NCBI GenBank assembly: GCA_016713675.1
Contig: JADJOS010000005.1
Coordinates: forward strand, 144,018-208,017
Direction: 5' to 3'
Source: Acidobacteriota bacterium
GTDB lineage: Bacteria > Acidobacteriota > Blastocatellia > Pyrinomonadales > Pyrinomonadaceae
Length of the DNA stretch: 64,000 bases
Part shown: in pieces, positions 3,763-64,000 of the stretch
How positions within the stretch are numbered: position 1 is the first letter of the stretch
How the letters are laid out: each line of letters opens with the position of its first letter
The notes under the pieces: generated by a model
Databases searched by the model: none
What the model saw: the letters and a program-made list of their open reading frames with translations, nothing else
What the model was told of the DNA's origin: nothing
Program-made: the position numbers and the translations under genes

Positions 3763-4998
<1,236 letters not shown>

Positions 4999-5102: not shown

Positions 5103-6455
5103 ATGAAAGCACCGCTAGTCGCCATCATTGGCCGGCCGAACGTCGGAAAATCCACTTTGTTCAATCGCCTTGTCGGTTCGCGAAAGGCGATCGTAGGCGA
5201 TGAGCCGGGCATCACGCGCGACCGAATGTTCGGTGAGGTCGATTGGAAAGCAGAGACGTTTAGGCTAGTAGATACGGGCGGTATCGTACCCGATGATGAT
5301 GCAATAATCCCGCCAAATATTTTCAAACAGGCATCGCATGCGATCGACGAATCAGTCGCGATCATTTGGGTTCTCGATTCACGTGCGGGCATAACGCCGC
5401 TTGACGAGGAACTAGGCGTCTTGCTGCGAAATACCGGCAAACCGGTAATAATTGCTGCTAATAAATGTGAATCGAGAACGGTCGAAAACGAAGCCGGCGA
5501 GTTTTATCAATTCGGTTTCGAAATGTCTCCGGTCTCGGCAGAACACGGCACAGGCATAGGCGACCTGCTCGATATGGTCTTTGACCATCTTGTTTTTGAA
5601 GAAGAAGTCGAGACAGAAGCTTCAAACGAGATCAAGCTCGCGATCATTGGTAGGCCTAATGTCGGTAAATCTTCTTTGCTCAATCAGCTTCTCGGCGAAG
5701 ACCGCGTTATCGTATCGCCGATCGCCGGCACGACCCGCGATGCGATCGACACGCATTTGACGGTCGACGGCCAAGACTATCTACTCATCGACACCGCCGG
5801 GATCCGCCGTAAAGGCAAAACGACCGAGATGGCCGAAAAGCTCTCAGTCATCATGGCCCGTAAGGCCCTTGAAAGAGCAGACGTCGCCATAATCGTCATA
5901 GACGCCGTCGAAGGCGTGACAAATCTTGATGCGAATATAGCGGGTTACGCCGTGGATTCGGGCTGCTCGGTAATAATCGCCGTTAACAAATGGGACGCTC
6001 TCGAGGAAAAAGAGACGAACACCATTTACGAATTTGAGCGCACGCTCCGAATGGCGATGAAGTTCCTCGATTGGGCACCGATCGTCACGATGTCCGCGCT
6101 AACCGGCCAACGAGTCAAGAATTTACTCCCGTTGGTAAATAAGGCAAACGCTGCCCGCAATTTGCGTGTTTCAACATCGAAACTGAACAAATTTTTCGAA
6201 GAGTCTATTTTGCAGCCAAAGGGCGGTTCGGCTCCGGCCCCGGTCAAAGGCGGCTTTTCGCGGCTAAAGGTGCAGTTTCTCACACAGGCAGGAATGCGTC
6301 CACCATTATTCATTTTGTTCACCTCGGGCGGGAAAGCCGGCCTTCATTTTTCGTATCTACGCTATATCGAAAACCAACTTCGGGAAGAGTTTGAGTTTTT
6401 CGCCACCCCTATCAGGCTTGTTGAGAGGCACAAAATGAAGCCTAAGAAGGGCTAG
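5103..6455 (+). CDS. der: ribosome-associated GTPase Der/EngA
   Basis: Two tandem G domains each carry GRPNVGKS(T/S)L, plus DTAG and NKxD motifs and a KH-like C-terminus. The ATG at 5103 (MKAPLVAIIG) fits the usual N-terminus better than 5070. Confidence 0.95.
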   Translation: MKAPLVAIIGRPNVGKSTLFNRLVGSRKAIVGDEPGITRDRMFGEVDWKAETFRLVDTGGIVPDDDAIIPPNIFKQASHAIDESVAIIWVLDSRAGITPLDEELGVLLRNTGKPVIIAANKCESRTVENEAGEFYQFGFEMSPVSAEHGTGIGDLLDMVFDHLVFEEEVETEASNEIKLAIIGRPNVGKSSLLNQLLGEDRVIVSPIAGTTRDAIDTHLTVDGQDYLLIDTAGIRRKGKTTEMAEKLSVIMARKALERADVAIIVIDAVEGVTNLDANIAGYAVDSGCSVIIAVNKWDALEEKETNTIYEFERTLRMAMKFLDWAPIVTMSALTGQRVKNLLPLVNKANAARNLRVSTSKLNKFFEESILQPKGGSAPAPVKGGFSRLKVQFLTQAGMRPPLFILFTSGGKAGLHFSYLRYIENQLREEFEFFATPIRLVERHKMKPKKG

Positions 6456-9756: not shown

Positions 9757-11445
9757 ATGAAAAACACAGGTTTGTGGATCAGAACAGCAATCATTATCGC
9801 GATCACGCTCGCCGGGACTTATCTTGTCTTTGGCCCGCGTCGAATGCCCACCGGTGCTGACCTTACGTGGACGGGGATCAAGGCTAATTTGGCCGAGAAT
9901 ATCAATCTTGGCCTTGACCTTAGAGGCGGTTCGCATCTGGTCATGCGAGTTAAAACCGACGAGTATCTCAAAACGCTTACGGAAAATAGTGCACAAGCTG
10001 CACTTACGGCCGCTCAGGACGCAAAACTGCCTGTGACCGGCAACGTAATTGCAGCCGAGAATGGAAGCTATTCGGTCACACTCAATATTTCAGATCCGTC
10101 GCAGAGCCAGGCGGTGATCGATGAAGTAAAGAAAAAGGTCGATTTCATCAATTGGGCAGAGAGCAATAATGGTTCGACCGTCAGTTGGTCGCTCGGTGCG
10201 GCCGCCCAGGATGTAATGAAAAGGCAGTCGGTCGATCAGGCGTTGAAGATCATTGATAGCCGAATTAATGCATTCGGGGTCAAGGAGCCGACGCTCCAGA
10301 AGCACGGTGCTGAGACATCTGGCCAGATATTGCTTCAAATGCCGGGTGTAGATGATCCGGAACGCGTCAAAAAGCTGATCGGATCTGATTCGAATCTGGC
10401 GTTGGCAAAGATCGTGAGTCCTCCAAATCCTTCGCCCGTTCAGACATATCCGACACGCGAGGCTGCGTTGGCTTCGATCGGAGGTAAGGACACGCAAACG
10501 CGAAGGGTATTTCCTTATGCGGACCGCGACGAACCGACAAAAGCCGGAGCAAAACCAGCAGATCCGAAAGCTCCTTCACAGTTTGTCGTTATCGAATACC
10601 CATATGTGATTGACGGAAGCGAGCTTCGCGATGCGAACGCTGTGTCCCGTACCGGCAGCGAGGGCGATTATCAGATCTCGTTCTCATTCAAACCGGCCGG
10701 AGCTCAGAAATTTGGCGAATGGACCGGAAAGAACATTAATAACTATATGGCCGTCGTTCTCAACGACGAGGTGAAATCTGCTGCGTTCATCAAATCGCAG
10801 ATCTTCGACAGCGGTGAGATCTCCGGCAAGTTTACAAAGACCTCTGCCGAAGACCTGGCACTCACGCTTAAATCGGGAGCATTACCGGCAAAGATCGAAT
10901 ATCAGGAAGAGCGCACCGTCGGGCCGAGCCTCGGTGCCGATTCGATCAAGTCAGGAGTAGAAGCCTCGCTCGGCGGGGTGGTGTTCATCGTAATATTCAT
11001 GCTGTTCTACTACCGCGGAGCCGGAGTTAATGCAGTCGTTGCATTATTGTTGAACCTGCTGCTCACGATGGCTGCGCTGATCACGATCAAGTCTACATTG
11101 ACATTGCCGGGTATCGCCGGGCTGATCCTTGGTATCGGCATGGCGGTAGACTCGAATGTGCTTATATTCGAGAGGATCCGTGAGGAGCTCCGAGCCGGAC
11201 ACGATGTTGCCAAATCGATTTATACCGGATTTGACAGAGCGTTTATTACGATCATCGATACTCACGTGACGACGATCATTTCAGCTGCCATTTTGTACCT
11301 TTACGGTACCGGCCCGATTCGCGGATTCGCAGTCACTCTGGTGCTGGGACTTTTGATCAATCTGTTCTCAGCCGTCTTTGTTTCACGTACCATATTTATG
11401 TGGATCCTGCATCGAAACAAGGATTTGAAAACCGTCAGTATTTAG
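9757..11445 (+). CDS. secD: protein translocase subunit SecD
   Basis: It has a large periplasmic domain and the C-terminal 6-TM SecD/F module (GIAGLILGIGMAVDSNVLIFERIREE). The ATG at 9757 (MKNTGLWIRT) is preferred over the TTG at 9715. Confidence 0.95.
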   Translation: MKNTGLWIRTAIIIAITLAGTYLVFGPRRMPTGADLTWTGIKANLAENINLGLDLRGGSHLVMRVKTDEYLKTLTENSAQAALTAAQDAKLPVTGNVIAAENGSYSVTLNISDPSQSQAVIDEVKKKVDFINWAESNNGSTVSWSLGAAAQDVMKRQSVDQALKIIDSRINAFGVKEPTLQKHGAETSGQILLQMPGVDDPERVKKLIGSDSNLALAKIVSPPNPSPVQTYPTREAALASIGGKDTQTRRVFPYADRDEPTKAGAKPADPKAPSQFVVIEYPYVIDGSELRDANAVSRTGSEGDYQISFSFKPAGAQKFGEWTGKNINNYMAVVLNDEVKSAAFIKSQIFDSGEISGKFTKTSAEDLALTLKSGALPAKIEYQEERTVGPSLGADSIKSGVEASLGGVVFIVIFMLFYYRGAGVNAVVALLLNLLLTMAALITIKSTLTLPGIAGLILGIGMAVDSNVLIFERIREELRAGHDVAKSIYTGFDRAFITIIDTHVTTIISAAILYLYGTGPIRGFAVTLVLGLLINLFSAVFVSRTIFMWILHRNKDLKTVSI

Positions 11446-40730: not shown

Positions 40731-42143
40731 ATGACAAAGGCACATTTTGGAATGATCGGCCTCGGCACAATGGGCCGCAATTTTCTGCTCAATATCGCCG
40801 AACACGGCATCCCCGGCGTCGGTTACGACCTCGACGCCGATAAACGCGAATTGCTTCTCAAAGAAAGTGCAGGGACGCCGGTCGATGTCGGCACCGATCT
40901 AACCGATTTCATTGCAAAACTCGAATCTCCACGCAACATCATGATGCTCGTCCCTGCGGGACCGATCGTTGACAAAGTGATCGCCGACCTGGCACCGCTC
41001 CTTGATAAGGACGACCTGATCATAGACGGCGGCAACTCGCATTTTACCGACACCGACCGCCGTATCGCCGAGCTTGAGGCAAAAGGCGTCGGTTTTATGG
41101 GCATCGGCGTTAGCGGCGGCGAAGAAGGTGCTCGTCACGGGGCAAGCATAATGCCCGGCGGGAAACGCGAGCATTACGAACGCATCGAAACCACGCTGCA
41201 AGCCGTTTCTGCGAAGGTAAACGGCGAACCGTGCGTCGCGTACATGGGCTCGGGCTCTGCCGGGCACTTCGTCAAGATGGTTCACAACGGCATCGAGTAC
41301 GGCATGATGCAGCTTCTCGCTGAAACGTACGATTTCATGCAGCGTGTCCTGCGGATGGCAAATACCGAGATGCACCGCACATTTACCGATTGGAACGGCG
41401 GCGAACTCAATTCGTTCCTCGTCGAGATCACGGCCGAGGTTTTGAGAAAGACCGATCCCGAGACCGGAAATCCTCTGGTCGCGATGATCCTCGACACTGC
41501 CGGCCAAAAGGGAACCGGCAAATGGACGTCGCAAGCAGCTATGGATCACGGTGTGCCGATCCCGACGATCGATACCGCCGTCTCGATGCGTCAGATCTCG
41601 TCGCAGAAGGCAGTTCGAACCAAGATCGCATCGAAATACTCGGGGATGTCGACCACCGCCGATCAGAGTCATTCGAGAACGTCGGTCGGCGAACTCAAAG
41701 ATGCACTTTTGTGTGCATTTATCCTTACCTACGGACAGGGAATGTCCCTGCTTCAAAAAGCGTCGGTCGAAAGCAGCTACGGCCTCGATCTCGCCGAGAT
41801 CGCCCGAATTTGGCGTGGCGGCTGCATCATTCGCTCAAAACTGCTCGAAACGATCCGCGTGGCGTACTCATCGGATCCGTCGCTCGACAACCTTATGCTT
41901 GATAAGACGTTCGCCGACATGTTGAATTCACGCATCGGTTCGCTTCGAAAGGCTGTCGTCGCATTCAACGAAAACGGCATTCCGGCGGCATGTTTCTCGT
42001 CTGCTCTCGCATATTTCGACGCCTTCCGCACCGAACGCCTCCCCGCAAACCTCATCCAGGCCCAACGCGACTACTTCGGTGCCCACACCTACCAACGGGT
42101 AGACAAAGATGGCACTTTTCATACTGACGATTGGGATAAGTAG
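40731..42143 (+). CDS. gnd: 6-phosphogluconate dehydrogenase, decarboxylating
   Basis: It shows GMIGLGTMGRN (NADP site), GGNSHF, GVSGGEEGAR.G.S.MPGG, FVKMVHNGIEYG.MQ and RDYFGAHTY. Confidence 0.95.
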   Translation: MTKAHFGMIGLGTMGRNFLLNIAEHGIPGVGYDLDADKRELLLKESAGTPVDVGTDLTDFIAKLESPRNIMMLVPAGPIVDKVIADLAPLLDKDDLIIDGGNSHFTDTDRRIAELEAKGVGFMGIGVSGGEEGARHGASIMPGGKREHYERIETTLQAVSAKVNGEPCVAYMGSGSAGHFVKMVHNGIEYGMMQLLAETYDFMQRVLRMANTEMHRTFTDWNGGELNSFLVEITAEVLRKTDPETGNPLVAMILDTAGQKGTGKWTSQAAMDHGVPIPTIDTAVSMRQISSQKAVRTKIASKYSGMSTTADQSHSRTSVGELKDALLCAFILTYGQGMSLLQKASVESSYGLDLAEIARIWRGGCIIRSKLLETIRVAYSSDPSLDNLMLDKTFADMLNSRIGSLRKAVVAFNENGIPAACFSSALAYFDAFRTERLPANLIQAQRDYFGAHTYQRVDKDGTFHTDDWDK

Positions 42144-42260
42144 CGATCAGCAAGAGTGTCGCATCGCGACGCGTTGAATTTAGCCGTGGGCGTTTGTTCA
42201 CGGAAAAGTAAAAATATGCGATCTCGTCGCTTGGCGAAGCCTGAAAACGAGCACGGCGCG

Positions 42261-42491
42261 ATATCAAACGACCGCGTAGCAACATCTATCGACCGCGAAG
42301 CCCGTACAATTGATCGCGTAGCAACTTACAACGACCGCGAAGCTTGATGAATCGACCGCGTAGCTGCATCAAACGACTGCAAAGTTAATTACATTCATTC
42401 CGCAGCCGCTTTCGACGACCGCGTAGCCACTTTCATTCACTCCGTAGCTGCTTTCACTCACCAAATAGCGACTTTCAAACATCCCTCACCT
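42261..42491 (+). repeat. degenerate tandem array, 11 units of exactly 21 nt (core CGACCGCGTAGC decaying toward the 3' side)
   Basis: I phased the units by hand. They start at 42261, 42282, 42303, 42324, 42345, 42366, 42387, 42408, 42429, 42450 and 42471. Units alternate ...cgaccgcgtagc / ...cgaccgcgaagc, and later units keep a (g/a)ctttc prefix. Confidence 0.8.
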
Positions 42492-42499
42492 GCTTTTGC

Positions 42500-42565
42500 T
42501 CCCCTCCTTACTAAGGAGGGGTGGCGTCCCGACGCTTTTGGTCGGGGCGACGGGGTGGTTCTCTC
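42500..42565 (+). repeat. nested-hairpin repeat element, copy 1 (intergenic, long inner hairpin)
   Basis: The sequence is tCCCCTCCTTactAAGGAGGGGTGGcgtcccgacgcttttggtcggggcgacGGGGTGGttctctc. Its ends are shared with the copies at 54996 and 62991. Confidence 0.8.
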
Positions 42566-42619
42566 ATTCTCGACTCCGAACACTGGCCACTTTTCACCTT
42601 TCACTGTTCACTATTTTCC

Positions 42620-42647
42620 TTGACAACACCAAAAACAGGCGTATTAT
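42620..42647 (+). promoter_or_regulatory. near-consensus sigma-70-type promoter for the 42705 gene
   Basis: TTGACA (42620-42625), a 16-nt spacer, then TATTAT (42642-42647). GGAGG lies at 42686-42690 before the ATG at 42705. Confidence 0.5.
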
Positions 42648-42704
42648 CGACTTACCGCAAAATCTTCACGGTAAAAACTATAATTTGGAGGTTCATAACA
42701 CCCT

Positions 42705-43364
42705 ATGAACGATAAAAACCGCAGATACCTTGAGGCAGGCCAGCGTTGCCGTCAATGGATCGTAGATTACGTTGCTCTCATTCCGGTCGGCAGTATGTTC
42801 GAAACGAGGACCGGAGAACTCACCGCACAGGTCGATCTGTTAGAGGATCTGGCCGGCGAGATCGAATCTTTCACCGGCGAAGGCCTTTCCGCCACCGATG
42901 TCAAAGGCTCAGAACGCATCGACCTGCTCGACATTATGGAAAAGGTCCGCAACGCCGCTCGCGCCGCCGAACCCGCAAATCCCGGCACCCGCGACCGTTA
43001 TCGCTACACCACCAATATGTCGCATCAGCTCTTGCTCGCCACAGGCCGGGCATTTGCCGCAGGCGGAGCCGCCGACGAAGCTTTGCTTCAAAGTTACGGC
43101 GCACCCGGCAGCTGGCCCGACCACGTCACCGACGCCTGCAACGCCTTCGAAGCCTCATTCGGCCAACAAGACTCCGCCGTCGGCAGCCGCATCGCCAAAA
43201 ATGCCGAGTTCAACGACAAAATGGCCCAAATGATCGCCACCAAAGCCACCGTCGGCCACATGGTCCCAAACTTCTGCACCGGCAACCCCGGCGCCATCGC
43301 CGCCTGGAACTCCGCCGCCCACGTCGAAGCACCGCCAAAGAAAAAGGTGCCACCGACACCTTAG
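42705..43364 (+). CDS. hypothetical helical protein (visibly GC-rich gene)
   Basis: This frame has balanced amino-acid composition, whereas the overlapping Arg/Pro-rich frame (42746-43402) does not. It is preceded by a promoter and an SD. I recognise no family. Confidence 0.6.
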   Translation: MNDKNRRYLEAGQRCRQWIVDYVALIPVGSMFETRTGELTAQVDLLEDLAGEIESFTGEGLSATDVKGSERIDLLDIMEKVRNAARAAEPANPGTRDRYRYTTNMSHQLLLATGRAFAAGGAADEALLQSYGAPGSWPDHVTDACNAFEASFGQQDSAVGSRIAKNAEFNDKMAQMIATKATVGHMVPNFCTGNPGAIAAWNSAAHVEAPPKKKVPPTP

Positions 43365-43502
43365 TTACTATTCAGTTGTTCTCGAAAGAAAACGACGTTT
43401 AGGCTTGCATCATGGGAGAATCTAGCACACGATAGGCTGCGCGGACGAGTCGGGTTCGATACTGACCAGCGTCGACACCGTCCGAGTTACGATAACAGGA
43501 TA

Positions 43503-43862
43503 ATGGAGGCCAAAATGGTAAAACTTTCCCGTAAAGCAATTAAAGTCGGCGTCGCAGTCTTTGCTGCCATATTACTATGGGGCTGTAGTAATGCGTTAAC
43601 AGAATCTTCCGCAGTCAGAATCCTTCAAAAGAACATGGATGAGCAATACGAAAAATACAAGTCGGATGAGCACCTTAAGGACGTTGTTGAGCATTTGGTG
43701 GTTGAAAGTTGCGAACGTCTGGTCTTAACTGCGGAAACAATGGCCACAGCTCGATGCAAGGTAAGCAGGAAGAATAAGACCACTGCAGTTCTACCTGAGG
43801 TTGTCTTTGGAAAGAAACCTGACGGTACCTGGACTGTCACGTCTGTAACTAGCGCGTTTTAG
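43503..43862 (+). CDS. hypothetical lipoprotein
   Basis: It has a signal peptide with the lipobox LLWGC. The gene is visibly more AT-rich than its neighbours. Confidence 0.6.
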   Translation: MEAKMVKLSRKAIKVGVAVFAAILLWGCSNALTESSAVRILQKNMDEQYEKYKSDEHLKDVVEHLVVESCERLVLTAETMATARCKVSRKNKTTAVLPEVVFGKKPDGTWTVTSVTSAF

Positions 43863-43874
43863 CTTGGAGGCAAA

Positions 43875-44996
43875 ATGAAAACCTTATTCGCCCTAGCAGG
43901 CATTCCCGTTATTTGTTTTCTTCTTTGTACAGACACCGTTAAATGTCAAAAGAGACCATTCGTTCGAACAATCGTTGGATCGATCTCAGCTTTTGAATGC
44001 GGCGATAATTGTTATTTAACGATTATGGACGACTACGGAAAGACACACGTCGGGTTATGCTCGGCTCGTGAATGTGACTCTTGGGTTGATGAAGCCGTAT
44101 TGCCAGTTAGTGCGAAAGGAAAACGAGTCAAGATAACGGTTGGTAGGGGTACGCAATTCGACGGTTCTGGTAGAGCCGTAGGCAAAATGGACGCTTTTAC
44201 TAAAATCCAGTACTTGCCGGATACGCTAACGACTATTAGTTCGGACTGTAGGTATTGCGGAACTTGGAAATATACTGCTGAGGGAAACATGTTTCAAGGC
44301 CAAACAGGTTATCTAAGAGTATCGCAAGAGGGCAAAGCTCGGTTTAAGCTTCTTACCGGGTTTCCTGACCTAGCAGGTCAAATCGAATGGACTGACTTCG
44401 AAATCAAGAATTCGAATGGCATTTACCTAACAGAGGTGGGCGGAAAGTTAACTGGAAGATTTGTTTCACCCAACTTTCTCCCCACCCGTTGGCAGGATTA
44501 TTCTTACCGCATAACTTGTGCTCTTAGATCCGACGGCAAAATGGATTATTCAGTTTGGTCTTCACCTGGTGCTAAAGCTGTAGGGCCTAGCACGACGGAA
44601 CGTTTCGTTGCAACGAGAATTCAAAAGACTAAATCGGAACTTCCAAAAGCCGCTGGGACAAATTCGATGACTGGAACGGTAATTGATAACCCAACGGGAA
44701 TTTGTGGCGTAGGCGAGCTTATCGTATTCTGGTCCGCTATTATTATCAAAGTTGGCGACGAGAGATACTATGTTGCTACCTATGACCCCTGTGTTCTAAA
44801 TTCTGGTAAGCCTACTGCTTTTTCGGCGAAGACAGTTGGGTCAGTTGAACGGGTCGGAAGCACCGTGCAAGTATTCTACTCGAGGAGAGCCCCGGATACG
44901 CGCTCGACCCGCCTAGACTTGGAAGGCCGTCCGAAAGTATTCGAGGGATACGATGGTGAACTTACGGCAACTAGGATTGTTGAAGTGAAAGAATAA
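43875..44996 (+). CDS. hypothetical secreted protein
   Basis: It has a signal peptide and an N-terminal Cys-containing module (FECGDNCYLTIMDDYGKTHVGLCSARECDSW). It starts 12 nt after the lipoprotein gene. I recognise no family. Confidence 0.6.
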   Translation: MKTLFALAGIPVICFLLCTDTVKCQKRPFVRTIVGSISAFECGDNCYLTIMDDYGKTHVGLCSARECDSWVDEAVLPVSAKGKRVKITVGRGTQFDGSGRAVGKMDAFTKIQYLPDTLTTISSDCRYCGTWKYTAEGNMFQGQTGYLRVSQEGKARFKLLTGFPDLAGQIEWTDFEIKNSNGIYLTEVGGKLTGRFVSPNFLPTRWQDYSYRITCALRSDGKMDYSVWSSPGAKAVGPSTTERFVATRIQKTKSELPKAAGTNSMTGTVIDNPTGICGVGELIVFWSAIIIKVGDERYYVATYDPCVLNSGKPTAFSAKTVGSVERVGSTVQVFYSRRAPDTRSTRLDLEGRPKVFEGYDGELTATRIVEVKE

Positions 44997-45212
44997 AAGT
45001 TACTCAATCGCCTGTACGCCTAGGTTCCCAGTTATCGTTGACGACGTCTTTCGCCTAAACCATCTATGTAAGCATCATGATCGATACTTAACTTCACCGA
45101 TTTCTGCAACAATGTAATTCGGCGTGGCGTTTATATTTGCGGAGGATATTTTCTCGATGACTGCGAAGGAACATAATTCCGGAGCCTGATACCCCAATTC
45201 TTTCGACGAAAG

Positions 45213-45587
45213 CTATTCTTCGTTACTTCTGATCTTTTCAACTAATCCTCGTATTTCGGCGGTGGCGGGTGCGTCTGGGTGGTCTTGCTCCACGTATTCG
45301 AGTACCATCTCGGCCCGTTCTTCGAGGTCGAGCATCGTCAGGTCGAGGTCGTTTTGGGCATCGACAAGAGCGACGGCCGAGGCGTACTCATCAGCTAGGG
45401 CCTTTTCCATCTTAGGTATTCTAATTTCCATCTCGGCGAGGTCAGCCAAAAACGGGACGAGCGGCTCCTTCGGCAGAATGCCCGCCGCGAGATTTGCTTT
45501 CGCAATTGCGATCGCCGCTTTAAGGTCATCGAGCCGCTTCGCGGCCTCGGTGTAGCCGCTTTCGCCGAGATGTTTTTGAAGGTCCAT
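45213..45587 (-). CDS. hypothetical acidic helical protein (paralog of 46434-46841)
   Basis: Both proteins share SGYT, EY.S.V..VD..NDL... and an acidic C-terminal helix. Confidence 0.6.
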   Translation of the reverse strand: MDLQKHLGESGYTEAAKRLDDLKAAIAIAKANLAAGILPKEPLVPFLADLAEMEIRIPKMEKALADEYASAVALVDAQNDLDLTMLDLEERAEMVLEYVEQDHPDAPATAEIRGLVEKIRSNEE

Positions 45588-45673
45588 AGCTTTTCCTTCG
45601 AAAATTATGCCGCTAAATCATTCAAAAAACTAACGCCGTCTTCGCTACCGGCCGCAAGAGGCGATCGGCTATG

Positions 45674-46363
45674 TCATATAACCTGCATGATTTCGTCGAG
45701 CGGCTTTCGCTTGATGTCGGGGACTCTTGCGTCGTCAGCGGGATAGCCGACGGGGATCAGGACGAACGGTACTTCGTTCTTTGGGCGTCCGAGTATCTCT
45801 TGCAGGAACTTCATCGGCGAGGGCGTGTGCGTCAGCGTCGCGAGGCCCATATTATGAAGTGCGGCGAGTAATAAACCGACCGCGATACCGACCGATTCCT
45901 GCGAGTAATACGTCGGCTCGCTCTCGCCTGCTTCGACTATCGTCGTGATGCGAAATACTACGATCAGATAAGGTGCGATCTCGAGAAAAGGCTTGTGCTC
46001 GTCAGTGCCGAGCGGTGCAAGACGCCGCAGCCATTTGTCGCTCATTCGATGGTGGTAGCTCTCGTGTTCCTCGACCTCGGCGGCCTCGCGTATCTTCGAC
46101 TTGACTTGCGGGTCACGAACCACGACAAACCGCCAGGGCTGCAAATTTGCCCCCGAAGGCGCCGTCCCAGCCGTCGCGATGGCTCGTTCGATCAGCTCGA
46201 TCGGCACATCGCGGTCCGAATATTCCCTGACCGTTCGCCGCCGAGCGATCAACTCAAAGAATCGCCGTGCCCTCTCAAGCTGCTCGTCCGGTTCGACCTC
46301 AACAAACTCAAGAGGATTGAATTTCGGTGATGCATGTTCCATATTGGTCGATTCGCCCGTCAA
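45674..46363 (-). CDS. nitroreductase-family flavoprotein (iodotyrosine-deiodinase/BluB-like subgroup by length and motifs)
   Basis: It shows RRTVREYSDRDVP.ELIE.AI..AGTAPSGAN.QPW.FVVV and a C-terminal G.P. Confidence 0.8.
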   Translation of the reverse strand: MTGESTNMEHASPKFNPLEFVEVEPDEQLERARRFFELIARRRTVREYSDRDVPIELIERAIATAGTAPSGANLQPWRFVVVRDPQVKSKIREAAEVEEHESYHHRMSDKWLRRLAPLGTDEHKPFLEIAPYLIVVFRITTIVEAGESEPTYYSQESVGIAVGLLLAALHNMGLATLTHTPSPMKFLQEILGRPKNEVPFVLIPVGYPADDARVPDIKRKPLDEIMQVI

Positions 46364-46433
46364 CAGAGCGTACTACTTCTCCAAACACCTAGCAATTTCT
46401 TTCTGACAGTCGTCCGTCATGCGGGCGGTGGCG

Positions 46434-46841
46434 TCATTTAAGATCGCCGAATACCGAGCGGATCTTGGCGGCTTGTTCGGGGTCGGTTTCTTCGAGTTGT
46501 TCGGCGGCGAGTTCGAGTTGTTCCTGGGTTTGCAGGAGTGCGAATTCGAGGTCGTTGCGGGTATCGACGATCCTGACCGTTGATTCGTACTCAGCGGCTA
46601 GGGCGGCGGCTTCGTCGATGACCGCCTTCTCGAATTCAAGCATTTCCGGCGGCAACGCGTTACCGCTTAGCTCAAACTCTCGCCTCGCGTTCTCGACCAG
46701 CCGCATGTCCCGCTCGTTGTCCGCCAGCCGCTTCGTGTATCCGCTCCTTTCAAGCCTTTCCTCTAATGTATTCACTGATTCCTCCGCTGTGTGGCATTTG
46801 CGATCATATCGCGACACGCGCTTTTCTCTTGCGTATTCCAT
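46434..46841 (-). CDS. hypothetical acidic helical protein (paralog of 45213-45587)
   Basis: See the paralog. Its 135 aa are predicted to be all-helical from composition. Confidence 0.6.
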   Translation of the reverse strand: MEYAREKRVSRYDRKCHTAEESVNTLEERLERSGYTKRLADNERDMRLVENARREFELSGNALPPEMLEFEKAVIDEAAALAAEYESTVRIVDTRNDLEFALLQTQEQLELAAEQLEETDPEQAAKIRSVFGDLK

Positions 46842-46902
46842 GGTAAATCGCTAGAATCGCTGAGACATCCCTTCTGTCAGATAGATTATATAATAACGGA
46901 GA

Positions 46903-47265
46903 ATGATGATTATGAGTTTCAGCAGCAAATTGTTCAGAATGAGTGTGTTAAGTGCATTTCTCGTTTTGATGAGTTTTTCCGCCACCTATGCCCAGGATGG
47001 TGAAGTTAGTTTCACGGTTTACAACAAAACGAACTCGCGTATCACGAGACTGCTCGTTGCCGAGCCGGGCAAGAAAACATGGAGCTACTTTGACATCGGA
47101 AAGGGTATCGCTCCGGGCGGCTCAATGGTACTGGCCTGGGATAAATCAGCCTACAACGAAGATTGCGTACAGTGGATAAAAGCCGTGTATGCGGACAAAT
47201 CGCAATCCCCCGCGGTCAAGTTCGACTTCTGCGAAGACGATCTCGAGTTGGAATTCACGGAATAA
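46903..47265 (+). CDS. small hypothetical secreted protein
   Basis: It has a signal peptide (SVLSAFLVLMSFSATYAQ) and is followed by a strong terminator. Confidence 0.55.
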   Translation: MMIMSFSSKLFRMSVLSAFLVLMSFSATYAQDGEVSFTVYNKTNSRITRLLVAEPGKKTWSYFDIGKGIAPGGSMVLAWDKSAYNEDCVQWIKAVYADKSQSPAVKFDFCEDDLELEFTE

Positions 47266-47289
47266 GCAAACACTTTCTCCAAAATAAGC

Positions 47290-47330
47290 AAGGCCGGCCG
47301 AATTTCAACATTCGTCCGGCCTTTCTGTTT
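47290..47330 (+). terminator. rho-independent terminator
   Basis: aaggccggccgaat (47290-47303) pairs with attcgtccggcctt (47310-47323) with one mismatch, followed by tctgttt. Confidence 0.7.
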
Positions 47331-47444
47331 GATCGCCCGACTTCAATACTGCTTCTTTCAAGCCATCCCTCTGAGGTATTCACCAATGCCTCCATTATGT
47401 GGTCTATGGTAAGATACCGCGAAAAGCTCAAGGAGAGAGACGAT

Positions 47445-47906
47445 ATGGCGTATCCAAACATATTCGACAAAGAGGTTGCGGACGGAGTTATCGCGAGGCT
47501 GAATACTTTGACGCCGGAGTCGCAGCGGCAGTGGGGCAAGATGGACGTTGCGAGGATGTTCGCACATTGCAATGTCGCGTATGAGTGCATCTACGAGCCG
47601 GACAAGCATCCGAAGCCGAAATTTCCGATGAGTTTTATACTCAAATACATCGTTGCTCCGATCGTCGTCGGAGAAAAACCGCCCAAGAGGAATTCGCCTA
47701 CGGGCCCGCAGTTCATTATCGCCGACGAACGCGAGTTCGAACGCGAACGATCGCGACTCATCGATTACATAAACCGAACGACCGAGCTTGGCGAAGCAGA
47801 GTTCGACGGCAAAGAATCGCACTCTTTCGGCGTGCTGAACAAGACGCAGTGGTCGAATATGCTCTATAAGCACCTCGATCATCACTTGCAGCAATTCGGG
47901 GCTTAG
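47445..47906 (+). CDS. DUF1569/DinB-like four-helix protein
   Basis: The ATG at 47445 is preceded by aaggagag. It shows RQWGKMDVARMFAHC...YKHLDHHLQQFG. The upstream part of ORF 47163-47906 crosses a terminator and is rejected. Confidence 0.6.
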   Translation: MAYPNIFDKEVADGVIARLNTLTPESQRQWGKMDVARMFAHCNVAYECIYEPDKHPKPKFPMSFILKYIVAPIVVGEKPPKRNSPTGPQFIIADEREFERERSRLIDYINRTTELGEAEFDGKESHSFGVLNKTQWSNMLYKHLDHHLQQFGA

Positions 47907-54173: not shown

Positions 54174-55844
54174 ATGAAATTATCTACGCCCTGGCAGAAG
54201 CAAAACCCAACGAGCAGACTGCAAAAGCTGACCGATGAATACCGCGTACTCGAGGCGCGCCTCAAACTCGGCGGCGGCACCGAAAAGATCGAAAAGATAC
54301 ACAAACAAGGCAAACTGACCGCTCGCGAACGGATCGACTTGCTCCTTGACCCCGACTCGTTCCAACAAGAGATCGGCTTACTCGTCGCTTATGATCAATA
54401 CGACGGTCAGGCTCCCGCAGCCGCAGTCGTTACCGTCGTCGGCAAGATCCACGGCCGCGAATGTGTGGTAATCGCAAATGACGCGACGATCAAAGCCGGA
54501 GCATGGTATCCCGAGACTATCAAAAAGATCCTTCGGGCTCAGGAGATCGCGATGCGCAACCGCGTGCCGATCATCTATCTGGTCGATAGTGCCGGCGTCA
54601 ACCTGCCGTACCAGGGCGGTGTCTTTCCGGGGCAATACGGTGCAGCACGCATCTTTTACTACAATTCGATCATGCGGAAATACCTCAAGGTCCCGCAGAT
54701 CTCGGCCGTCATGGGAATGTGCGTCGCCGGTGGGGCATATTTGCCCGCCTTAAGCGATGTGATCCTTATGGTCGAAGGCACCAGCTTTATGGGCCTAGGC
54801 GGTGCCAATCTCGTCAAAGGAGCAACGGGCCAATCCATCGACAACGAAACCCTCGGCGGAGCCATGACCCACAACGCCATCTCCGGCGTCGCCCACTTCC
54901 GGACCAAAGATGACAAAGCATGTTTGGAGAAAATAAGGGAACTCGTCAGTGAACTGCCGGCAAAAGAACCAACGCGCGTGTCGGTCGTTCCGAACTCCCC
55001 TCCTTACAAAGAAGGGGTGGCAGCCGCTTCGGCTGACGGGGCGGTTCTCTCCGACGAGCATTCGCTCTACAACCTGCTTCCCGAAGACCACCGAGCACCG
55101 TATGAAATGCACGACGTCCTCAACACCTTTCTCGACGAAGGCGGCATCGACGAATTCCAAGCCGACTTTGCCAAAGAGATGATCTGCGGAACTGCCCGCA
55201 TCGGCGGTATTCTCGTCGGTGTGATCGCAAACAGCCGCGGCATGTCGAAAGGGAAGCCGGGAACTCCGCCGCGATTCGGCGGGATCGTCTATACCGAATC
55301 TGCCGAGAAGACCGCGTATTTCATCGAGAACTGCGACCGCCATTCTACGCCGTTGCTCTTTGTACAGGACGTCTCCGGCTTTATGGTCGGTGCTGAGGCT
55401 GAACACAGCGGCATCATCCGGGCCGGTGCCCGTTTTGTCGAAGCAATGGCGACCGCCGCCGTGCCTAAGATCGTCCTGACGATAAACCACGCCAGCGGTG
55501 CAGGTTATTACGCGATGGCCGGACAGGGCTTCGACCCCGACTTCATCTTCTCGCTCCCGACGGGCCGCATGGGCGTCATGGAAGGCGATTCCGCCGCCCA
55601 GGCTATCTACGGGACCCAGATCGAAAAACTCAAAAAAGAGGGTAAGGAACCGCCGCCCGAAATGCTCGAAGAAATGCAAAAGGTCCGCGAAACCTATGAC
55701 CGCGAACTTGACGCCAAACATGCCGCGGCCAGAGGTTTGGTCGATGCAATTGTCACCCCCGAGGACCTTCGGGAGTCGTTGATGTTGGCTTTGCAGACAT
55801 GTTTGAATACTAACCAACCCCACATTGGAGCCTTCGTCCTTTAG
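54174..55844 (+). CDS. acyl-CoA carboxylase carboxyltransferase (beta) subunit, methylcrotonyl-/propionyl-CoA carboxylase type, carrying a ~19-aa repeat-encoded insertion
   Basis: It has two crotonase-fold CT domains (ANDATIKAGAWYPETIKK..RAQEIA; GIVYTESAEKTAYFIENCDRHSTPLLFVQDVSGFMVG). The inter-domain linker contains [19 protein letters not shown], which is encoded by the repeat element. Confidence 0.9.
   Translation: MKLSTPWQKQNPTSRLQKLTDEYRVLEARLKLGGGTEKIEKIHKQGKLTARERIDLLLDPDSFQQEIGLLVAYDQYDGQAPAAAVVTVVGKIHGRECVVIANDATIKAGAWYPETIKKILRAQEIAMRNRVPIIYLVDSAGVNLPYQGGVFPGQYGAARIFYYNSIMRKYLKVPQISAVMGMCVAGGAYLPALSDVILMVEGTSFMGLGGANLVKGATGQSIDNETLGGAMTHNAISGVAHFRTKDDKACLEKIRELVSELPAKEPTRVSVVPNSPPYKEGVAAASADGAVLSDEHSLYNLLPEDHRAPYEMHDVLNTFLDEGGIDEFQADFAKEMICGTARIGGILVGVIANSRGMSKGKPGTPPRFGGIVYTESAEKTAYFIENCDRHSTPLLFVQDVSGFMVGAEAEHSGIIRAGARFVEAMATAAVPKIVLTINHASGAGYYAMAGQGFDPDFIFSLPTGRMGVMEGDSAAQAIYGTQIEKLKKEGKEPPPEMLEEMQKVRETYDRELDAKHAAARGLVDAIVTPEDLRESLMLALQTCLNTNQPHIGAFVL
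54996..55051 (+). repeat. nested-hairpin repeat element, copy 2 (inside the carboxyltransferase CDS, in frame)
   Basis: The sequence is tcccctccttacaaagaaggggtggcagccgcttcggctgacggggcggttctctc. It differs at only 3 positions from the reverse complement of copy 3. Confidence 0.85.
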
Positions 55845-55870: not shown

Positions 55871-56581
55871 ATGCGAACTCCTAACTTCGTTTTTTGTTTA
55901 ACCTTATTCGTGTTCATTTACGGCAACGCCTATGCTCAGACTGTTCCCGCAGATTCGGAGCCCGTGATCAAAGGATCCACCAGCTACCAGCTTCCACGGT
56001 CAGCGATCGACGCGGGAATTGATGGAACCATTACTGTAGCGATACGAATTGACGAAAGCGGAAAGCCAAAGGCATTGGCTCTGATTTCCGGGCCCATGTG
56101 GCCGTGCGGTTCGACGCCGCAGGCCGCTCTGAATGACCTTTCCGCTACGCTGTCCGAGACGTTGATGAAGGTCGAATTCACACCTGCGGTAAAGAAGGGC
56201 AAGCCTTACGAGACGACGATCGGCCTGACATTCAAGCTAAAAAACCCAAATATCAAACCGGCAAAGGTCGAGCTCGACCAAATGACCGGCAAACCAAAGC
56301 CTGCGATGATCAATGCAGGTGTCGTTAACGGGAAGGCCGTATCACTCCCGAAACCGGCATATCCGCGCGAAGCAAGGATGAACCGCGACGGCGGTGCGGT
56401 CTCGATCCAGGTGGTGATCGATGAAAAAGGGAATGTTATCCGGGCCGGGGCCGTCAACGGGGCACCTTCGCTCCAATTTGCCTCACGAGATGCTGCCTGC
56501 GGTGCCAAATTCGAACCGACGCTCCTTCAAGGAAGCCCGATCATGGTCTCGGGCGTAATAACTTACAATTTCGTTCCATAA
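55871..56581 (+). CDS. periplasmic protein with two TonB C-terminal-like domains
   Basis: It has a signal peptide rather than a TM anchor and no Pro-rich spacer. The second domain (LPKPAYPREARMNRDGGAVSIQVVI...VSGVITYNFVP) ends identically to TonB at 12940-13752. Confidence 0.7.
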   Translation: MRTPNFVFCLTLFVFIYGNAYAQTVPADSEPVIKGSTSYQLPRSAIDAGIDGTITVAIRIDESGKPKALALISGPMWPCGSTPQAALNDLSATLSETLMKVEFTPAVKKGKPYETTIGLTFKLKNPNIKPAKVELDQMTGKPKPAMINAGVVNGKAVSLPKPAYPREARMNRDGGAVSIQVVIDEKGNVIRAGAVNGAPSLQFASRDAACGAKFEPTLLQGSPIMVSGVITYNFVP

Positions 56582-62716: not shown

Positions 62717-62758
62717 GGTTTTCGTGTCATTTCGTGCAGTTTCATGGTTACGTTCTTA
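62717..62758 (+). repeat. copy B of the three-unit ATTTCGTG-type motif, immediately after the enoyl-CoA hydratase gene
   Basis: The sequence is ggttttcgtg tcatttcgtg cagtttcatg gttacgttctta. By hand count, 32 of 41 aligned positions are identical to copy A. The final tta is the complement of the AtuA-like stop codon. Confidence 0.6.
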
Positions 62759-64000
62759 CGCTGCGATGATCTCAACCTTTGGCGTGATCAGCGACTTCGG
62801 GATCAGGGCCGGGAAGTAGGCCATGATCTCTTCGACTTTGGGGCGGCCGCCGGCGAAGCCTGTGACGGAGGGCGGGCCGGTGAGGATTAGTGGGGCGATC
62901 TCTTTTGTGAAGCGTTCGACGTCGGCTTTGTTTTGGCTGCGGACGCCGATGCGGAGTTGGACTTCGGGGATGTCGCGGTCTCGTGCGGGAGAGAGAACCA
63001 CCCCGTCAGCCGAAGCGGCTGCCACCCCTCCTTCGTAAGGAGGGGAGCCTGACTCGCGGCCTGCGGTCGCAAGAGCGAGGTGGCCGTGGGTGGCGTTGAC
63101 GCCGACGTATTCGGTTAGGATGACTTCGAATTCGAGGCCTAGGTTTTTTAGGCGTTCGCGGAGGATCTTGTCGGCGGCTTGGGCTTTTTCTAGAGCATCT
63201 GGCCATGAATAGACTAATGTGCCGACGGATTTGTAGCCGCCGGTGTAGGCGATGGAGACTTTGTAGAAATCGGTCTTTGGGTGGCCGGTGATGCCGTGGA
63301 CGCGGACGCGGTTGTCGCCGGCGGGTTCGAGATTGATCGACGCGAAATCGGCGACTACGTCGGGCGTGATGTACTCGTGCGGGTCGCCCATTTCGTAGAG
63401 GAGCTGCTCTTTGACAGACTGAATGTTGACGCGGCCGCCGGTGCCTTCGTGTTTGGTGACGATGAAGGTGCCGTCGGGTGAAGCTTCGACGATCGGGAAG
63501 CCGATGTTCGCCATGTCGGGGATGTTTTGCCAATCGTACTGGCAGTTGCCGCCGCTCGATTGGGCACCGCATTCGATGATGTGGCCCGCGATCGTGCCGG
63601 CCGAGACCTTGTCCCAGTCGTCAAAGCTCCAGCCGAATTCGTGCATCAGCGGTGCGAGCGTCAGGCCCGTATCGGTCAAGCGGCCGCCGACGATGACGTT
63701 CGCGCCTTTGCCTAGAGCCTCTACCAACGCTTCGGCACCGAGATAGACGTTGGCGGACTGGACTTTGTCGCGGATCGCGGACAAAGGCGTACCGTCGTCC
63801 ATGCTGTTGATCGCGACGCCGTCGGCGATAAACTGATCGAGCCGATCGAGAACGTCATCTCCGGTGACGACGCCGATCTTTACTTTGCCTTGCAGGCCGA
63901 GCTCGCGCGCGACGTTGGCGATGGCGTTCGCACAGCCTTCAACGTTGACGCCGCCGGCGTTTGAGAGGACCTTGATATCTTTTTCGACGCAATCGGGCAA
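62756..64000 (-). CDS. AtuA-like (DUF1446) acyclic-terpene-utilisation family protein, 5' end outside the window, carrying a repeat-encoded insertion
   Basis: It shows [45 protein letters not shown] and [13 protein letters not shown]. The insertion is [20 protein letters not shown]. Confidence 0.8.
62991..63046 (-). repeat. nested-hairpin repeat element, copy 3 (inside the AtuA-like CDS, in frame)
   Basis: On the minus strand it reads tcccctccttacgaaggaggggtggcagccgcttcggctgacggggtggttctctc. Confidence 0.85.

Follow-up and report, generated by a model that had tools for sequence, protein, structure and literature searches.

A two-hairpin palindromic repeat read in frame in unrelated genes of Acidobacteriota, with a DUF559 nuclease gene as candidate partner

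A palindromic repeat of about 57-63 nt was found in frame in two unrelated protein-coding genes, and once between genes, within the 64,000-nt stretch of an Acidobacteriota genome analysed here (the window). We consider it likely to be a non-autonomous selfish repeat of REP/RPE-like type that in its full form brackets a DUF559 endonuclease gene, the coding copies in the window being survivors of a filter. The element is repeated within and among genomes, its insertion is polymorphic, its reading frame and orientation in host genes are biased, its second hairpin covaries, and its units are tightly coupled to DUF559 genes. The features in the window were as follows.

54174-55844, plus strand: host gene 1, acyl-CoA carboxylase beta / carboxyltransferase, 556 aa (PF01039, E 8.8e-137), with the insert at residues 275-293
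54991-55051, plus strand: element copy 1, in frame in the carboxyltransferase CDS, encoding (N)+19 residues (covariance model 81.0 bits, E 7.6e-22)
54997-55005 pairing with 55009-55017, plus strand: hairpin 1 of copy 1, with one C·A mismatch
55014-55020, plus strand: box 1 of copy 1 (GGGGTGG)
55021-55026 pairing with 55030-55035, plus strand: hairpin 2 of copy 1
55038-55044, plus strand: box 2 of copy 1 (GGGGCGG)
55045-55051, plus strand: tail of copy 1 (TTCTCTC)
62756-64000, running past the window end, minus strand: host gene 2, AtuA-family (DUF1446) protein (PF07287, E 2.7e-121; full protein 483 aa)
62991-63051, minus strand: element copy 2, in frame in the AtuA-family CDS, of consensus sequence, encoding (G)+19 residues (89.4 bits)
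42495-42565, plus strand: element copy 3, intergenic, 352 nt past the 6-phosphogluconate dehydrogenase stop (64.5 bits)

The first-pass annotation had described a 56-nt element at 54996-55051, inside the carboxyltransferase CDS and read as 19 residues; both the sequence and the translation, in frame 0 of the CDS 54174-55844, were confirmed. Its core stood, and the 56-nt extent was revised, since the unit takes in a few more 5' bases (consensus AAAGC) and reaches about 61-63 nt. The parts are arranged in the order AAAGC, a 9-bp hairpin 1 (CCCCTCCTT/AAGGAGGGG), GGGGTGG, a GC hairpin 2 of free sequence, a second GGGGTGG and TTCTCTC. The two consecutive hairpins proposed earlier were thus both recovered, hairpin 1 of copy 1 being imperfect at the C·A mismatch; the GGGGTGG/GGGGCGG direct repeats were present on either side of hairpin 2, and translation agreed with the statement that four of the six reading frames are free of stops. 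The further copies that had been reported in another gene and in an intergenic site correspond to copies 2 and 3. When a covariance model was run over the window, exactly these three copies and nothing else above noise were obtained, and the 25-nt core pattern occurred 3 times against 0.00 expected from shuffles of the window. Copy 2 matched copy 1 at 54 of 57 nt (62991-63047; 95% DNA identity), in the same orientation and frame relative to its host gene. In copy 3, hairpin 1 and both boxes were unchanged, hairpin 2 was a longer, different variant (CGTCCCGACGCTTTTGGTCGGGGCG), and a TAA within the hairpin 1 loop closed the SPPY frame.

Hairpin 1 and both GGGGTGG boxes were conserved in sequence, the invariance of hairpin 1 being partly due to the search pattern, which fixed it, while hairpin 2 varied in sequence with its pairing kept. 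Among 142 distinct units, both-side changes were found at all six pairs of hairpin 2 and 97% of the cells were paired; the covariation score was 0.181 compared with 0.037 in shuffles, and slid controls all remained at or below 0.015. Folding gave -25.2 kcal/mol for copy 1 (z -1.6) and -33.1 kcal/mol for copy 2 (z -3.3, or -3.26 to two decimals). The weaker fold of copy 1 is explained by its C·A mismatch in hairpin 1 and the T>C change in box 2. An alternative RNA pairing between hairpin 2 and box 2 appeared in the minimum-free-energy fold, but it hinged on a single hairpin 2 variant and found no support in the covariation, so it was rejected. No Rfam family was found on the element in the window at the gathering threshold, nor for the element in eight loci carrying it at E<=1, and a full-text literature search with strings of the element sequence returned unrelated eukaryotic papers only.

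More than 120 stretches of other genomes also contained the element. The 120 loci derived from the pattern search were the first among the matches listed and are not a random sample. Units occurred as singlets of about 60 nt and as inverted doublets of about 150 nt with a variable spacer of 29-50 nt, and their numbers have risen in Pyrinomonadaceae and in other Blastocatellia. A unit was carried in frame by at least 18 distinct host genes, unrelated to one another. Those confirmed by Pfam included the housekeeping genes for ValRS (4e-132), Mfd, PurH (1.5e-114) and PriA, and also genes for asparaginase, a decarboxylase, an ABC transporter, a P-type ATPase and a PLP-dependent PALP-fold enzyme (threonine synthase by our reading of the translation). 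The earlier suggestion of a MITE/REP-like repeat is supported by these unrelated host genes, by the occurrence in other genomes and by the insertion polymorphism described below. When the element peptide was searched against a protein database with an artificial tandem query, 2 candidates only were obtained.

Reading frame and orientation were strongly biased. Of 36 ORFs that spanned a unit and extended 60 codons or more beyond it in both directions, 22 read the unit in the sense SPPY frame and none in the other open sense frame; the remaining 14 may partly be spurious shadow frames, and some of the insertions are orthologous and hence not independent. On its outward strand the unit consists of a hairpin, its loop containing TAA, and a following T-run, a layout that may account for the sense-only bias. 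A terminator scan of one locus (L154) detected CCCCTCCTTCGTAAGGAGGGG and then AGCTTTTTTT in both flanks, each time on the outward strand, and the DUF559 ORF ended at the TAA/TGA of the hairpin 1 loop in at least 11 of 64 loci whose ORFs were followed to a stop. From these sequence features, the outward strand may terminate transcription. The three window copies had the 5' flanks CGAAC, CAGGC and TTTGC with no A-run, and the U-tract feature of a terminator was therefore lacking in them.

The gene associated with the units was DUF559, which encodes a Vsr-like PD-(D/E)XK endonuclease of about 125 codons. Units in opposite orientation bracketed this gene in a cassette of about 550-600 bp, which was seen in metagenome-assembled genomes (MAGs) assigned to about 10 phyla, the module being near-identical across different phyla. 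The association was examined in both directions. A DUF559 gene or pseudogene lay beside the units in 10 of the 120 pattern-derived loci (the first among the matches listed), and a unit was present in 72 of 80 loci of the DUF559 subfamily from metagenomes. Within 250 nt upstream of DUF559, 60 loci had a unit, the nearest being on the plus strand in 46; within 250 nt downstream, 63 loci had one, the nearest being on the minus strand in 52. Unit density was 4.86 per kb within 150 nt of DUF559 and 0.05 per kb at a distance of 600-1000 nt, with no units further than 1 kb away, so that it fell some 100-fold over the first kb. For every DUF559 cassette there were more than 10 solo units and gene-less inverted doublets. 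Two cassettes (L193 and L194) were found on one contig, in a region that is a tangle of partial duplications.

The cassette nuclease matched Pfam PF04480 with E values of 1e-28 to 2e-32, and its profile matched the structures 3hrl (7.6e-26) and 3r3p, the homing endonuclease I-Bth0305I (1.6e-3). Residues E64, D66, H70 and D79 were invariant in the DUF559 alignment. The subfamily shared 53-60% identity across phyla, with hairpin 1 and the boxes conserved alongside. No DUF559 gene was found within the 64-kb window; it is through relatives, for instance the Pyrinomonadaceae locus L009, that the source genome is linked to DUF559. None of the papers found to mention DUF559 describes flanking repeats; one of them lists DUF559 among predicted inversion targets, with a 14-fold enrichment.

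Whether by nicking or by homing, the DUF559 nuclease probably drives the spread of the units or accompanies it. A solo unit had no terminal inverted repeats of its own, and doublets and cassettes were bounded by inverted units. The left and right units of one cassette had an identical hairpin 2 in 1 of 28 cases, no more than chance; such unlike hairpins fit poorly with a transposon that copies itself through its own terminal repeats. To our knowledge, no PD-(D/E)XK nuclease acting alone is known to transpose DNA. The free sequence of the always-paired hairpin 2 could result from nuclease-triggered mismatch correction in an extruded hairpin, rather than from selection on function. We tentatively propose that the DUF559 cassettes might be an unrecognised class of selfish element, consisting of a minimal Vsr-like nuclease and bracketing hairpin units, comparable to a REPtron without a transposase, which would move horizontally across about 10 phyla and seed in-frame peptides in essential proteins.

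Alternatively, the units could be an independent repeat of REP/REPIN type moved by host recombination or by a different enzyme, for example a RAYT-like tyrosine transposase, and DUF559 a free-standing homing endonuclease that enters inverted doublets by break repair and parasitises rather than mobilises the repeat. We hold this to be possible but doubtful. The gene-less inverted doublets have the same arrow-to-arrow layout as the cassettes, with the variable spacer given above, and the unrelated hairpin 2 of left and right units would follow from entry of the gene into doublets already in place. The homology of the nuclease to the EDxHD homing endonuclease I-Bth0305I (PMC3239194, PMC3384342) points the same way, and in Blastocatellia the antisense of hairpin 2 reads CGTC-stem-loop-stem-GCCA, resembling the CGTC-tagged REPs that have no known transposase (PMC3733652); CGTC on the antisense side of hairpin 2 was confined to this subfamily, the others having CGGC. 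However, the stems of CGTC REPs measure 8-9 bp and have A-T in the first two positions, which the element does not share. Furthermore, hairpin 1 and the boxes were conserved from phylum to phylum, as was the DUF559 subfamily, which points to co-transfer and recognition by the nuclease. A tblastn search of about 200 loci also revealed no RAYT homologue, a weak argument given the short stretches searched and a single approximate E. coli query.

That the peptide is an insertion in its host proteins was evident from their orthologues, as the first-pass annotation had predicted. AtuA orthologues sharing 80-87% identity included clean empty alleles of 455 aa, and others carried 21 additional residues with the element peptide at that place; filled states ranged from 476 to 483 aa, and empty and filled alleles differed by 21 codons. 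Their flanks were about 15% diverged, too far for a target-site duplication or an exact insertion boundary to be read. For the carboxyltransferase, the insert lay where the N and C halves meet, in agreement with the placement between two carboxyltransferase domains made earlier. The majority of the 120 best-scoring orthologues (537-542 aa) were without the peptide, and the solved homologues 9tps and 9yx0 had a 14-residue gap at its position. A translated inverted doublet occupied the insert site in four orthologues. In the nearest insert-free orthologue, which is syntenic (L121), another repeat (GTCAGAACCGGGAGCGGTAGCGACCGG, read as SEPGAVATG) was present in the same linker, so that it did not provide a clean empty site, and the same host loops also house other repeat families. 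An AlphaFold2 model of the carboxyltransferase, built from a shallow alignment, had a mean pLDDT of 61 and was too poor to place the insert on the surface.

The surviving in-gene copies may be understood as those that passed a filter. A copy would have to preserve the reading frame by its net length, and it would have to lie sense to the gene, the antisense presenting a GC hairpin, AGC, a T-run and a TAA in the loop, a terminator-like signal with a stop. It would further need the SPPY frame, which yields a 19-residue peptide of small residues, and a permissive loop as its site. Selection would thus act on intragenic copies as a filter. The peptide itself had no evident function and decayed: orthologue inserts had been altered by substitution, by truncation and by changes of frame inside the unit, and were often absent or replaced by unrelated repeats.

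This decay makes it improbable that the intragenic copies were exapted, that is, that the mRNA hairpins together with the internal SD-like AAGGAGGGG serve to slow translation or to regulate it where two domains meet, or that the peptide is a functional flexible linker. Such a role would suit the strongly structured sense RNA of copy 2, the SD/anti-SD-like pair formed by hairpin 1, the position of the inserts at domain junctions and the repeated striking of the same loops among orthologues, but besides the decay it has against it that the carboxyltransferase copy has already lost one hairpin 1 pair and that the host genes are unrelated to each other. It is highly improbable that the host enzymes had the peptide as an ancestral linker motif or that the element is an assembly chimera. 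Many orthologues at 85-93% identity do carry the peptide at the same position, but the 57 nt are common to two genes that share nothing else, empty alleles and insert-free solved homologues exist, the insert state has to change at least 12 times in the carboxyltransferase and at least 28 times in AtuA on rough NJ trees, the reading frames are intact and homologous on either side of the element, and the insert recurs in 100% and 99% identical proteins from separate public assemblies (P0002 and P0003).

In-frame selfish palindromes are textbook knowledge for Rickettsia, with sporadic sightings elsewhere; the phenomenon thus has precedents in Rickettsia palindromic elements (RPEs) and intragenic REPs, and it is the partner gene DUF559 that looks new. 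As summarised in PMC10969869, RPEs are short palindromes found in frame in many unrelated, often essential Rickettsia genes and also between genes (Ogata et al. 2000). The element is similar in occurring in frame in many unrelated genes with a peptide that is apparently tolerated, and in intergenic sites. It appears to differ in sequence, and it differs in length (RPEs of about 100-150 nt, compared with the singlets and doublets given above), and further in its host, free-living soil Acidobacteriota instead of an obligate intracellular alphaproteobacterium, in the dominance of one frame and one orientation, and in having a candidate partner gene.

GTAG- and CGTC-tagged REPs occur as stem-loop singlets and inverted dimers, some of them in genes such as uvrA and those of tRNA synthetases, where they encode 20-30 residues (Di Nocera et al. 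2013, PMC3733652). The CGTC...CCA antisense of hairpin 2 in Blastocatellia recalls the CGTC class, from which the element departs in stem length, in the A-T-first pattern and in the absence of a CGTC-like tag from the subfamilies of other phyla; the unit differs from both tagged classes in its two hairpins, one invariant and one free, and its duplicated GGGGTGG boxes. The REPIN-RAYT system (PMC3116915, PMC3337134) likewise has non-autonomous hairpin singlets and inverted doublets that flank a single small gene and far outnumber it. In the element, however, the flanked gene is a Vsr-like PD-(D/E)XK nuclease (PF04480) and not an HUH/Y1 transposase, and whereas REPIN-RAYT inheritance is described as mostly vertical (10.1101/2022.05.22.493013), the DUF559 module was near-identical in MAGs of different phyla. 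With I-Bth0305I, the cassette nuclease shares the fold and, by homology, the catalytic constellation, as well as the character of a selfish, horizontally spread gene. I-Bth0305I is located within a group I intron of a phage and carries an extra DNA-binding region (PMC3239194, PMC3384342), whereas the cassette nuclease is minimal, at about 125 aa, and lies between repeated hairpin units at many chromosomal sites.

In-frame palindromes are pervasive in this abundant group of free-living soil bacteria and affect enzymes such as ValRS, Mfd, PriA and PurH. The reuse of the same loops by several repeat families provides a natural map of insertion-tolerant sites in the host proteins. For annotation, lineage-specific linkers and many small hypothetical proteins rich in the element peptide or in SPPYEGG are probably read-through of repeats. 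The coupling to DUF559 across phyla yields the testable hypothesis that the nuclease binds or nicks the hairpins of the units. If the cassettes are indeed a selfish class, this would be the first biological role for the large and very widespread DUF559 family, to which none is assigned, and it would offer a candidate partner for some REP-like repeats without a transposase, such as the CGTC class.

The first-pass annotation had described a 56-nt palindromic element translated in frame within a carboxyltransferase gene, with the same element in a second gene and at an intergenic site. The 56-nt sequence and its frame 0 reading were confirmed, translation gave the same four open reading frames out of six, and the other two copies were found at the positions listed here.

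Element copies, host gene and a neighboring gene in the window
54174-55844, plus strand: carboxyltransferase host ORF, 556 aa (PF01039, E 8.8e-137)
54996-55051, plus strand: element copy 1, in frame 0 of the carboxyltransferase ORF, read as a 19-residue peptide
62991-63047, minus strand: element copy 2, inside an AtuA-family ORF (PF07287, E 2.7e-121)
42495-42565: element copy 3, intergenic, after the 6-phosphogluconate dehydrogenase gene
45674-46363, minus strand: nitroreductase gene, in a 5.3-kb segment

Copies 1 and 2 were identical at 54 of 57 nt, and copy 2 had the same orientation and frame relative to its AtuA host gene, again giving a 19-residue peptide. Copy 3 kept hairpin 1 and both GGGGTGG boxes, with a longer hairpin 2 of unrelated sequence. 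Copy 1 had diverged by three substitutions, one of which disrupts a hairpin 1 pair, and its predicted fold was therefore weaker. A covariance model built from 24 units recovered the three copies over the 64 kb and no other credible match; shuffles of the window gave 0.00 expected occurrences of the 25-nt core. No DUF559 gene was found within the 64-kb window.

Copy 3 lies in a segment of about 5.3 kb (42137-47450) that starts directly after the 6-phosphogluconate dehydrogenase gene and is absent from the syntenic contig L121 (85% nucleotide identity on both sides). The segment contains several ORFs without a Pfam match, internal repeats (45343/46546 and 46743/47351) and, directly upstream of copy 3, about 7-8 tandemly repeated 21-nt units (42244-42453, consensus near CAAACGACCGCGTAGCAACAT). 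A 58-nt inverted match of 84% identity (46377-46434/62625-62682) joins a site in this segment with the 3' end of an enoyl-CoA hydratase gene. A 41-nt direct repeat of 90% identity (13712-13752/56541-56581) probably marks paralogous gene ends; its second copy is the 3' end of ORF 55871-56581 (...VITYNFVP*), whose L121 orthologue has a TonB_C match. A long imperfect CAG/CAA-rich repeat at 3937-4254 is apparently a glutamine-rich coding stretch.

Alignment with orthologues, proposed earlier as a check for extra residues, bore out an insertion. Solved carboxyltransferase structures had a 14-residue gap precisely at the element peptide. Among the 120 best-scoring carboxyltransferase orthologues listed (82-100% identity), most were 537-542 aa long and without the peptide, about 20 had it in the identical linker, and four (584-592 aa) contained a translated inverted doublet of the element. 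The nearest insert-free orthologue, in L121 (syntenic, 85% nucleotide identity), had a different repeat in the linker. For AtuA, many orthologues were 455 aa long with an uninterrupted 20-residue stretch at the insertion point, and others had 21 additional residues including the element peptide at the same point. The DNA alignment of the empty locus L123 with the filled loci L124, L125 and the window gave a 63-nt difference, with flanks too diverged to define a target-site duplication. These alignments show the element to be an insertion in both genes, AtuA being the cleanest case.

In still other orthologues the AtuA loop contained unrelated palindromic-repeat peptides of the type GTRTLLSA...ADKSVRVP. 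Since different repeats occupy the same carboxyltransferase and AtuA loops, repeats recurrently land or are retained there. Rough NJ trees required at least 12 changes of element state for the carboxyltransferase and at least 28 for AtuA, counts taken only as an indication that gain, loss and decay have recurred.

Other repeat families were translated in these very two loops in L121 and in orthologous proteins P0004, P0138-P0140, P0026 and P0040. The L121 linker repeat, at about 10790-10830, is GTCAGAACCGGGAGCGGTAGCGACCGG, translated SEPGAVATG, and low-complexity tails (DHRPPTTDH or EIRNPQSAIRN) occurred in the same places; the two loops are hotspots for several elements. Compared with solved homologues, the carboxyltransferase has a second lineage-specific insertion, SRGMSKGKPGTPPRF (55233-55277, residues 354-368), which is mostly conserved across the orthologue alignment and not repeat-derived.

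Frame usage was counted in frames that cover a unit and continue for 60 or more codons beyond it in both directions (n=36). The sense frame giving the element peptide (SPPY frame) accounted for 22, the other open sense frame (PLLTKEGWQ...) for none, and several of the remainder were antisense shadow ORFs or second halves of doublets. Pfam-confirmed host ORFs included valyl-tRNA synthetase, Mfd, PurH, PriA, isoaspartyl peptidase, an Orn/DAP-type decarboxylase, an ABC ATPase, a P-type ATPase and a PLP-dependent (PALP-fold) enzyme, a threonine synthase by reading of its translation. Some of these insertions are orthologous, which makes independence lower than the raw counts; even so, the orientation and frame bias of in-frame insertion is extreme. 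Selection may filter intragenic copies. An antisense copy would bring a terminator-like hairpin with a U-tract and a TAA in one frame, the third sense frame carries TGA, and the other open sense frame specifies Trp, Leu and Arg, which are bulky. The frame that is kept encodes a Gly/Ala/Ser/Pro-rich peptide that loops could absorb and that would then decay neutrally, as the carboxyltransferase and AtuA orthologue variants suggest.

The unit is a dispersed repeat. When a single genome of each species was scanned for the core pattern, at least 120 stretches matched, a non-random sample of loci, the majority from Pyrinomonadaceae, Chloracidobacterium and other Acidobacteriota MAGs and the others from Bacteroidota, Beta- and Gammaproteobacteria, Planctomycetota, Verrucomicrobiota, Chlamydiota, Patescibacteria, Armatimonadota and further phyla. 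MAGs supply many of the loci, and binning errors are possible in them; the unit nevertheless occurs in isolates of two phyla, those among the matches listed being Robertkochia marina, Pedobacter heparinus and Thiorhodospira sibirica. All 143 extracted units read CCCCTCCTT-nnn-AAGGAGGGG-TGG, then a hairpin, then GGGGTGG, the invariance of hairpin 1 being in part ascertainment. Hairpin 2 varied in length (7-50 nt) and came with a wide variety of stems. When 142 distinct units were aligned by the model, each of its six pairs had changes on both sides, 97% of cells were paired, and the covariation score was 0.181 vs 0.037 for shuffles and at most 0.015 for slid controls; hairpin 2 is maintained as structure only. 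No Rfam family matched the element, and a full-text literature search for its sequence returned no paper containing it.

Sister variants with the same architecture and different hairpin 1 and boxes (L089 3046-3101; L100 1560-1600 and 2036-2089), for example CTCCCCC/GGGGGAG with GAGGGGGTAG and CCTCCCC/GGGGAGG with GGAGGGGTT, adjoin the same DUF559 genes. In L056, an Acidobacteria MAG locus, at least three 78-nt repeats with one unit each are arranged head to tail and followed by an inverted unit (5378-5690); a weak, chance-level Rfam match to wcaG RNA overlaps them.

Inverted unit pairs surrounded degraded DUF559 genes in Bacteroidota. Intact DUF559 genes lay between units in Acidobacteriota (L009, L066), Planctomycetota (L089) and Bacteroidota (L100, L076). 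The proteins matched PF04480 (E 1e-28 to 2e-32), and four that were aligned (L009, L066, L089, L100) were 53-60% identical across three phyla. In the reverse direction, metagenome contigs were scanned with the DUF559 protein alignment and the best 80 loci were kept. The unit was present in 72 of these 80 (nhmmer), and the covariance model gave 291 matches in 201 kb. Of 60 loci with a unit up to 250 nt upstream, 46 had the nearest one on the plus strand; of 63 with a unit up to 250 nt downstream, 52 had the nearest one on the minus strand. Unit density was 4.86 per kb in the first 150 nt from the gene, dropped to 0.05 per kb at 600-1000 nt and was zero farther than 1 kb away. These data define a canonical module of about 550-600 bp, [unit, forward]-DUF559-[unit, reverse]. 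The DUF559 ORF often continues into the downstream unit, where the TAA in the hairpin 1 loop ends it (a 15-residue tail). On the outward strand of each flank, hairpin 1 is followed by AGC and a T-run, and a terminator scan detected both sides. These loci show physical coupling, in several phyla, of the unit with a DUF559 subfamily, and to the extent that the literature could be searched this partnership is the novel part. The protein profile matched the DUF559 structure 3hrl, with a weak match to the homing endonuclease I-Bth0305I as well; EDxHD homing endonucleases of the Vsr-like type are an established class (PMC3239194, PMC3384342).

Several cassettes had further features. In L193 and L194, 7 kb apart on the same contig, two DUF559 cassettes showed partial tandem duplications of the gene 3' end and right unit, and in L194 the whole block lay between direct repeats of about 50 nt. 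Viral contigs (2.9 million) contained only 9 stretches with the core pattern (L206-L214), mostly of the Blastocatellia-type unit; in L206 a DUF559 gene with 66% identity to the L009 protein adjoins the unit. In L136, L145 and L182 the DUF559 ORF passes through the downstream unit into about 190-220 more residues (motif ...YAVLHSPTYREKY...), which we take to resemble DNA methyltransferase C-terminal regions; the cassette may therefore have been inserted inside, or fused with, the gene of that extension. One study lists both DUF559 and N6 methylases as proteins with enrichment at predicted programmed inversions (PMC9881135).

Two kinds of in-frame palindromic repeat have been described: the RPEs of Rickettsia (reviewed in PMC10969869) and the intragenic GTAG/CGTC REPs of Opitutus, Thauera and others, for which repair genes and tRNA synthetases are notable hosts (PMC3733652). 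The REP/MITE-like reading of the first-pass annotation was supported, and the present family behaves as these systems do. REPINs/RAYTs are the model for a single gene flanked by its own repeats, but here the flanked gene is DUF559, which departs from the defining RAYT criterion; tblastn with one approximate E. coli query, a search of low sensitivity, found no RAYT homologue in about 200 loci. CGTC repeats have no transposase association, as stated in PMC3733652, and their stem pattern does not fit the present family.

DUF559 may home into pre-existing doublets, or it may instead mobilize the units. Hairpin 2 was hardly ever the same in the left and right unit of one cassette (identical in 1 of 28), and gene-less doublets of cassette-like geometry were common; both observations favor homing, or a process that rewrites hairpin 2. 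Speculatively, extruded hairpins might be substrates of a Vsr-like mismatch nickase that restores complementarity, and such repair would yield hairpin 2 covariation without selection on function.
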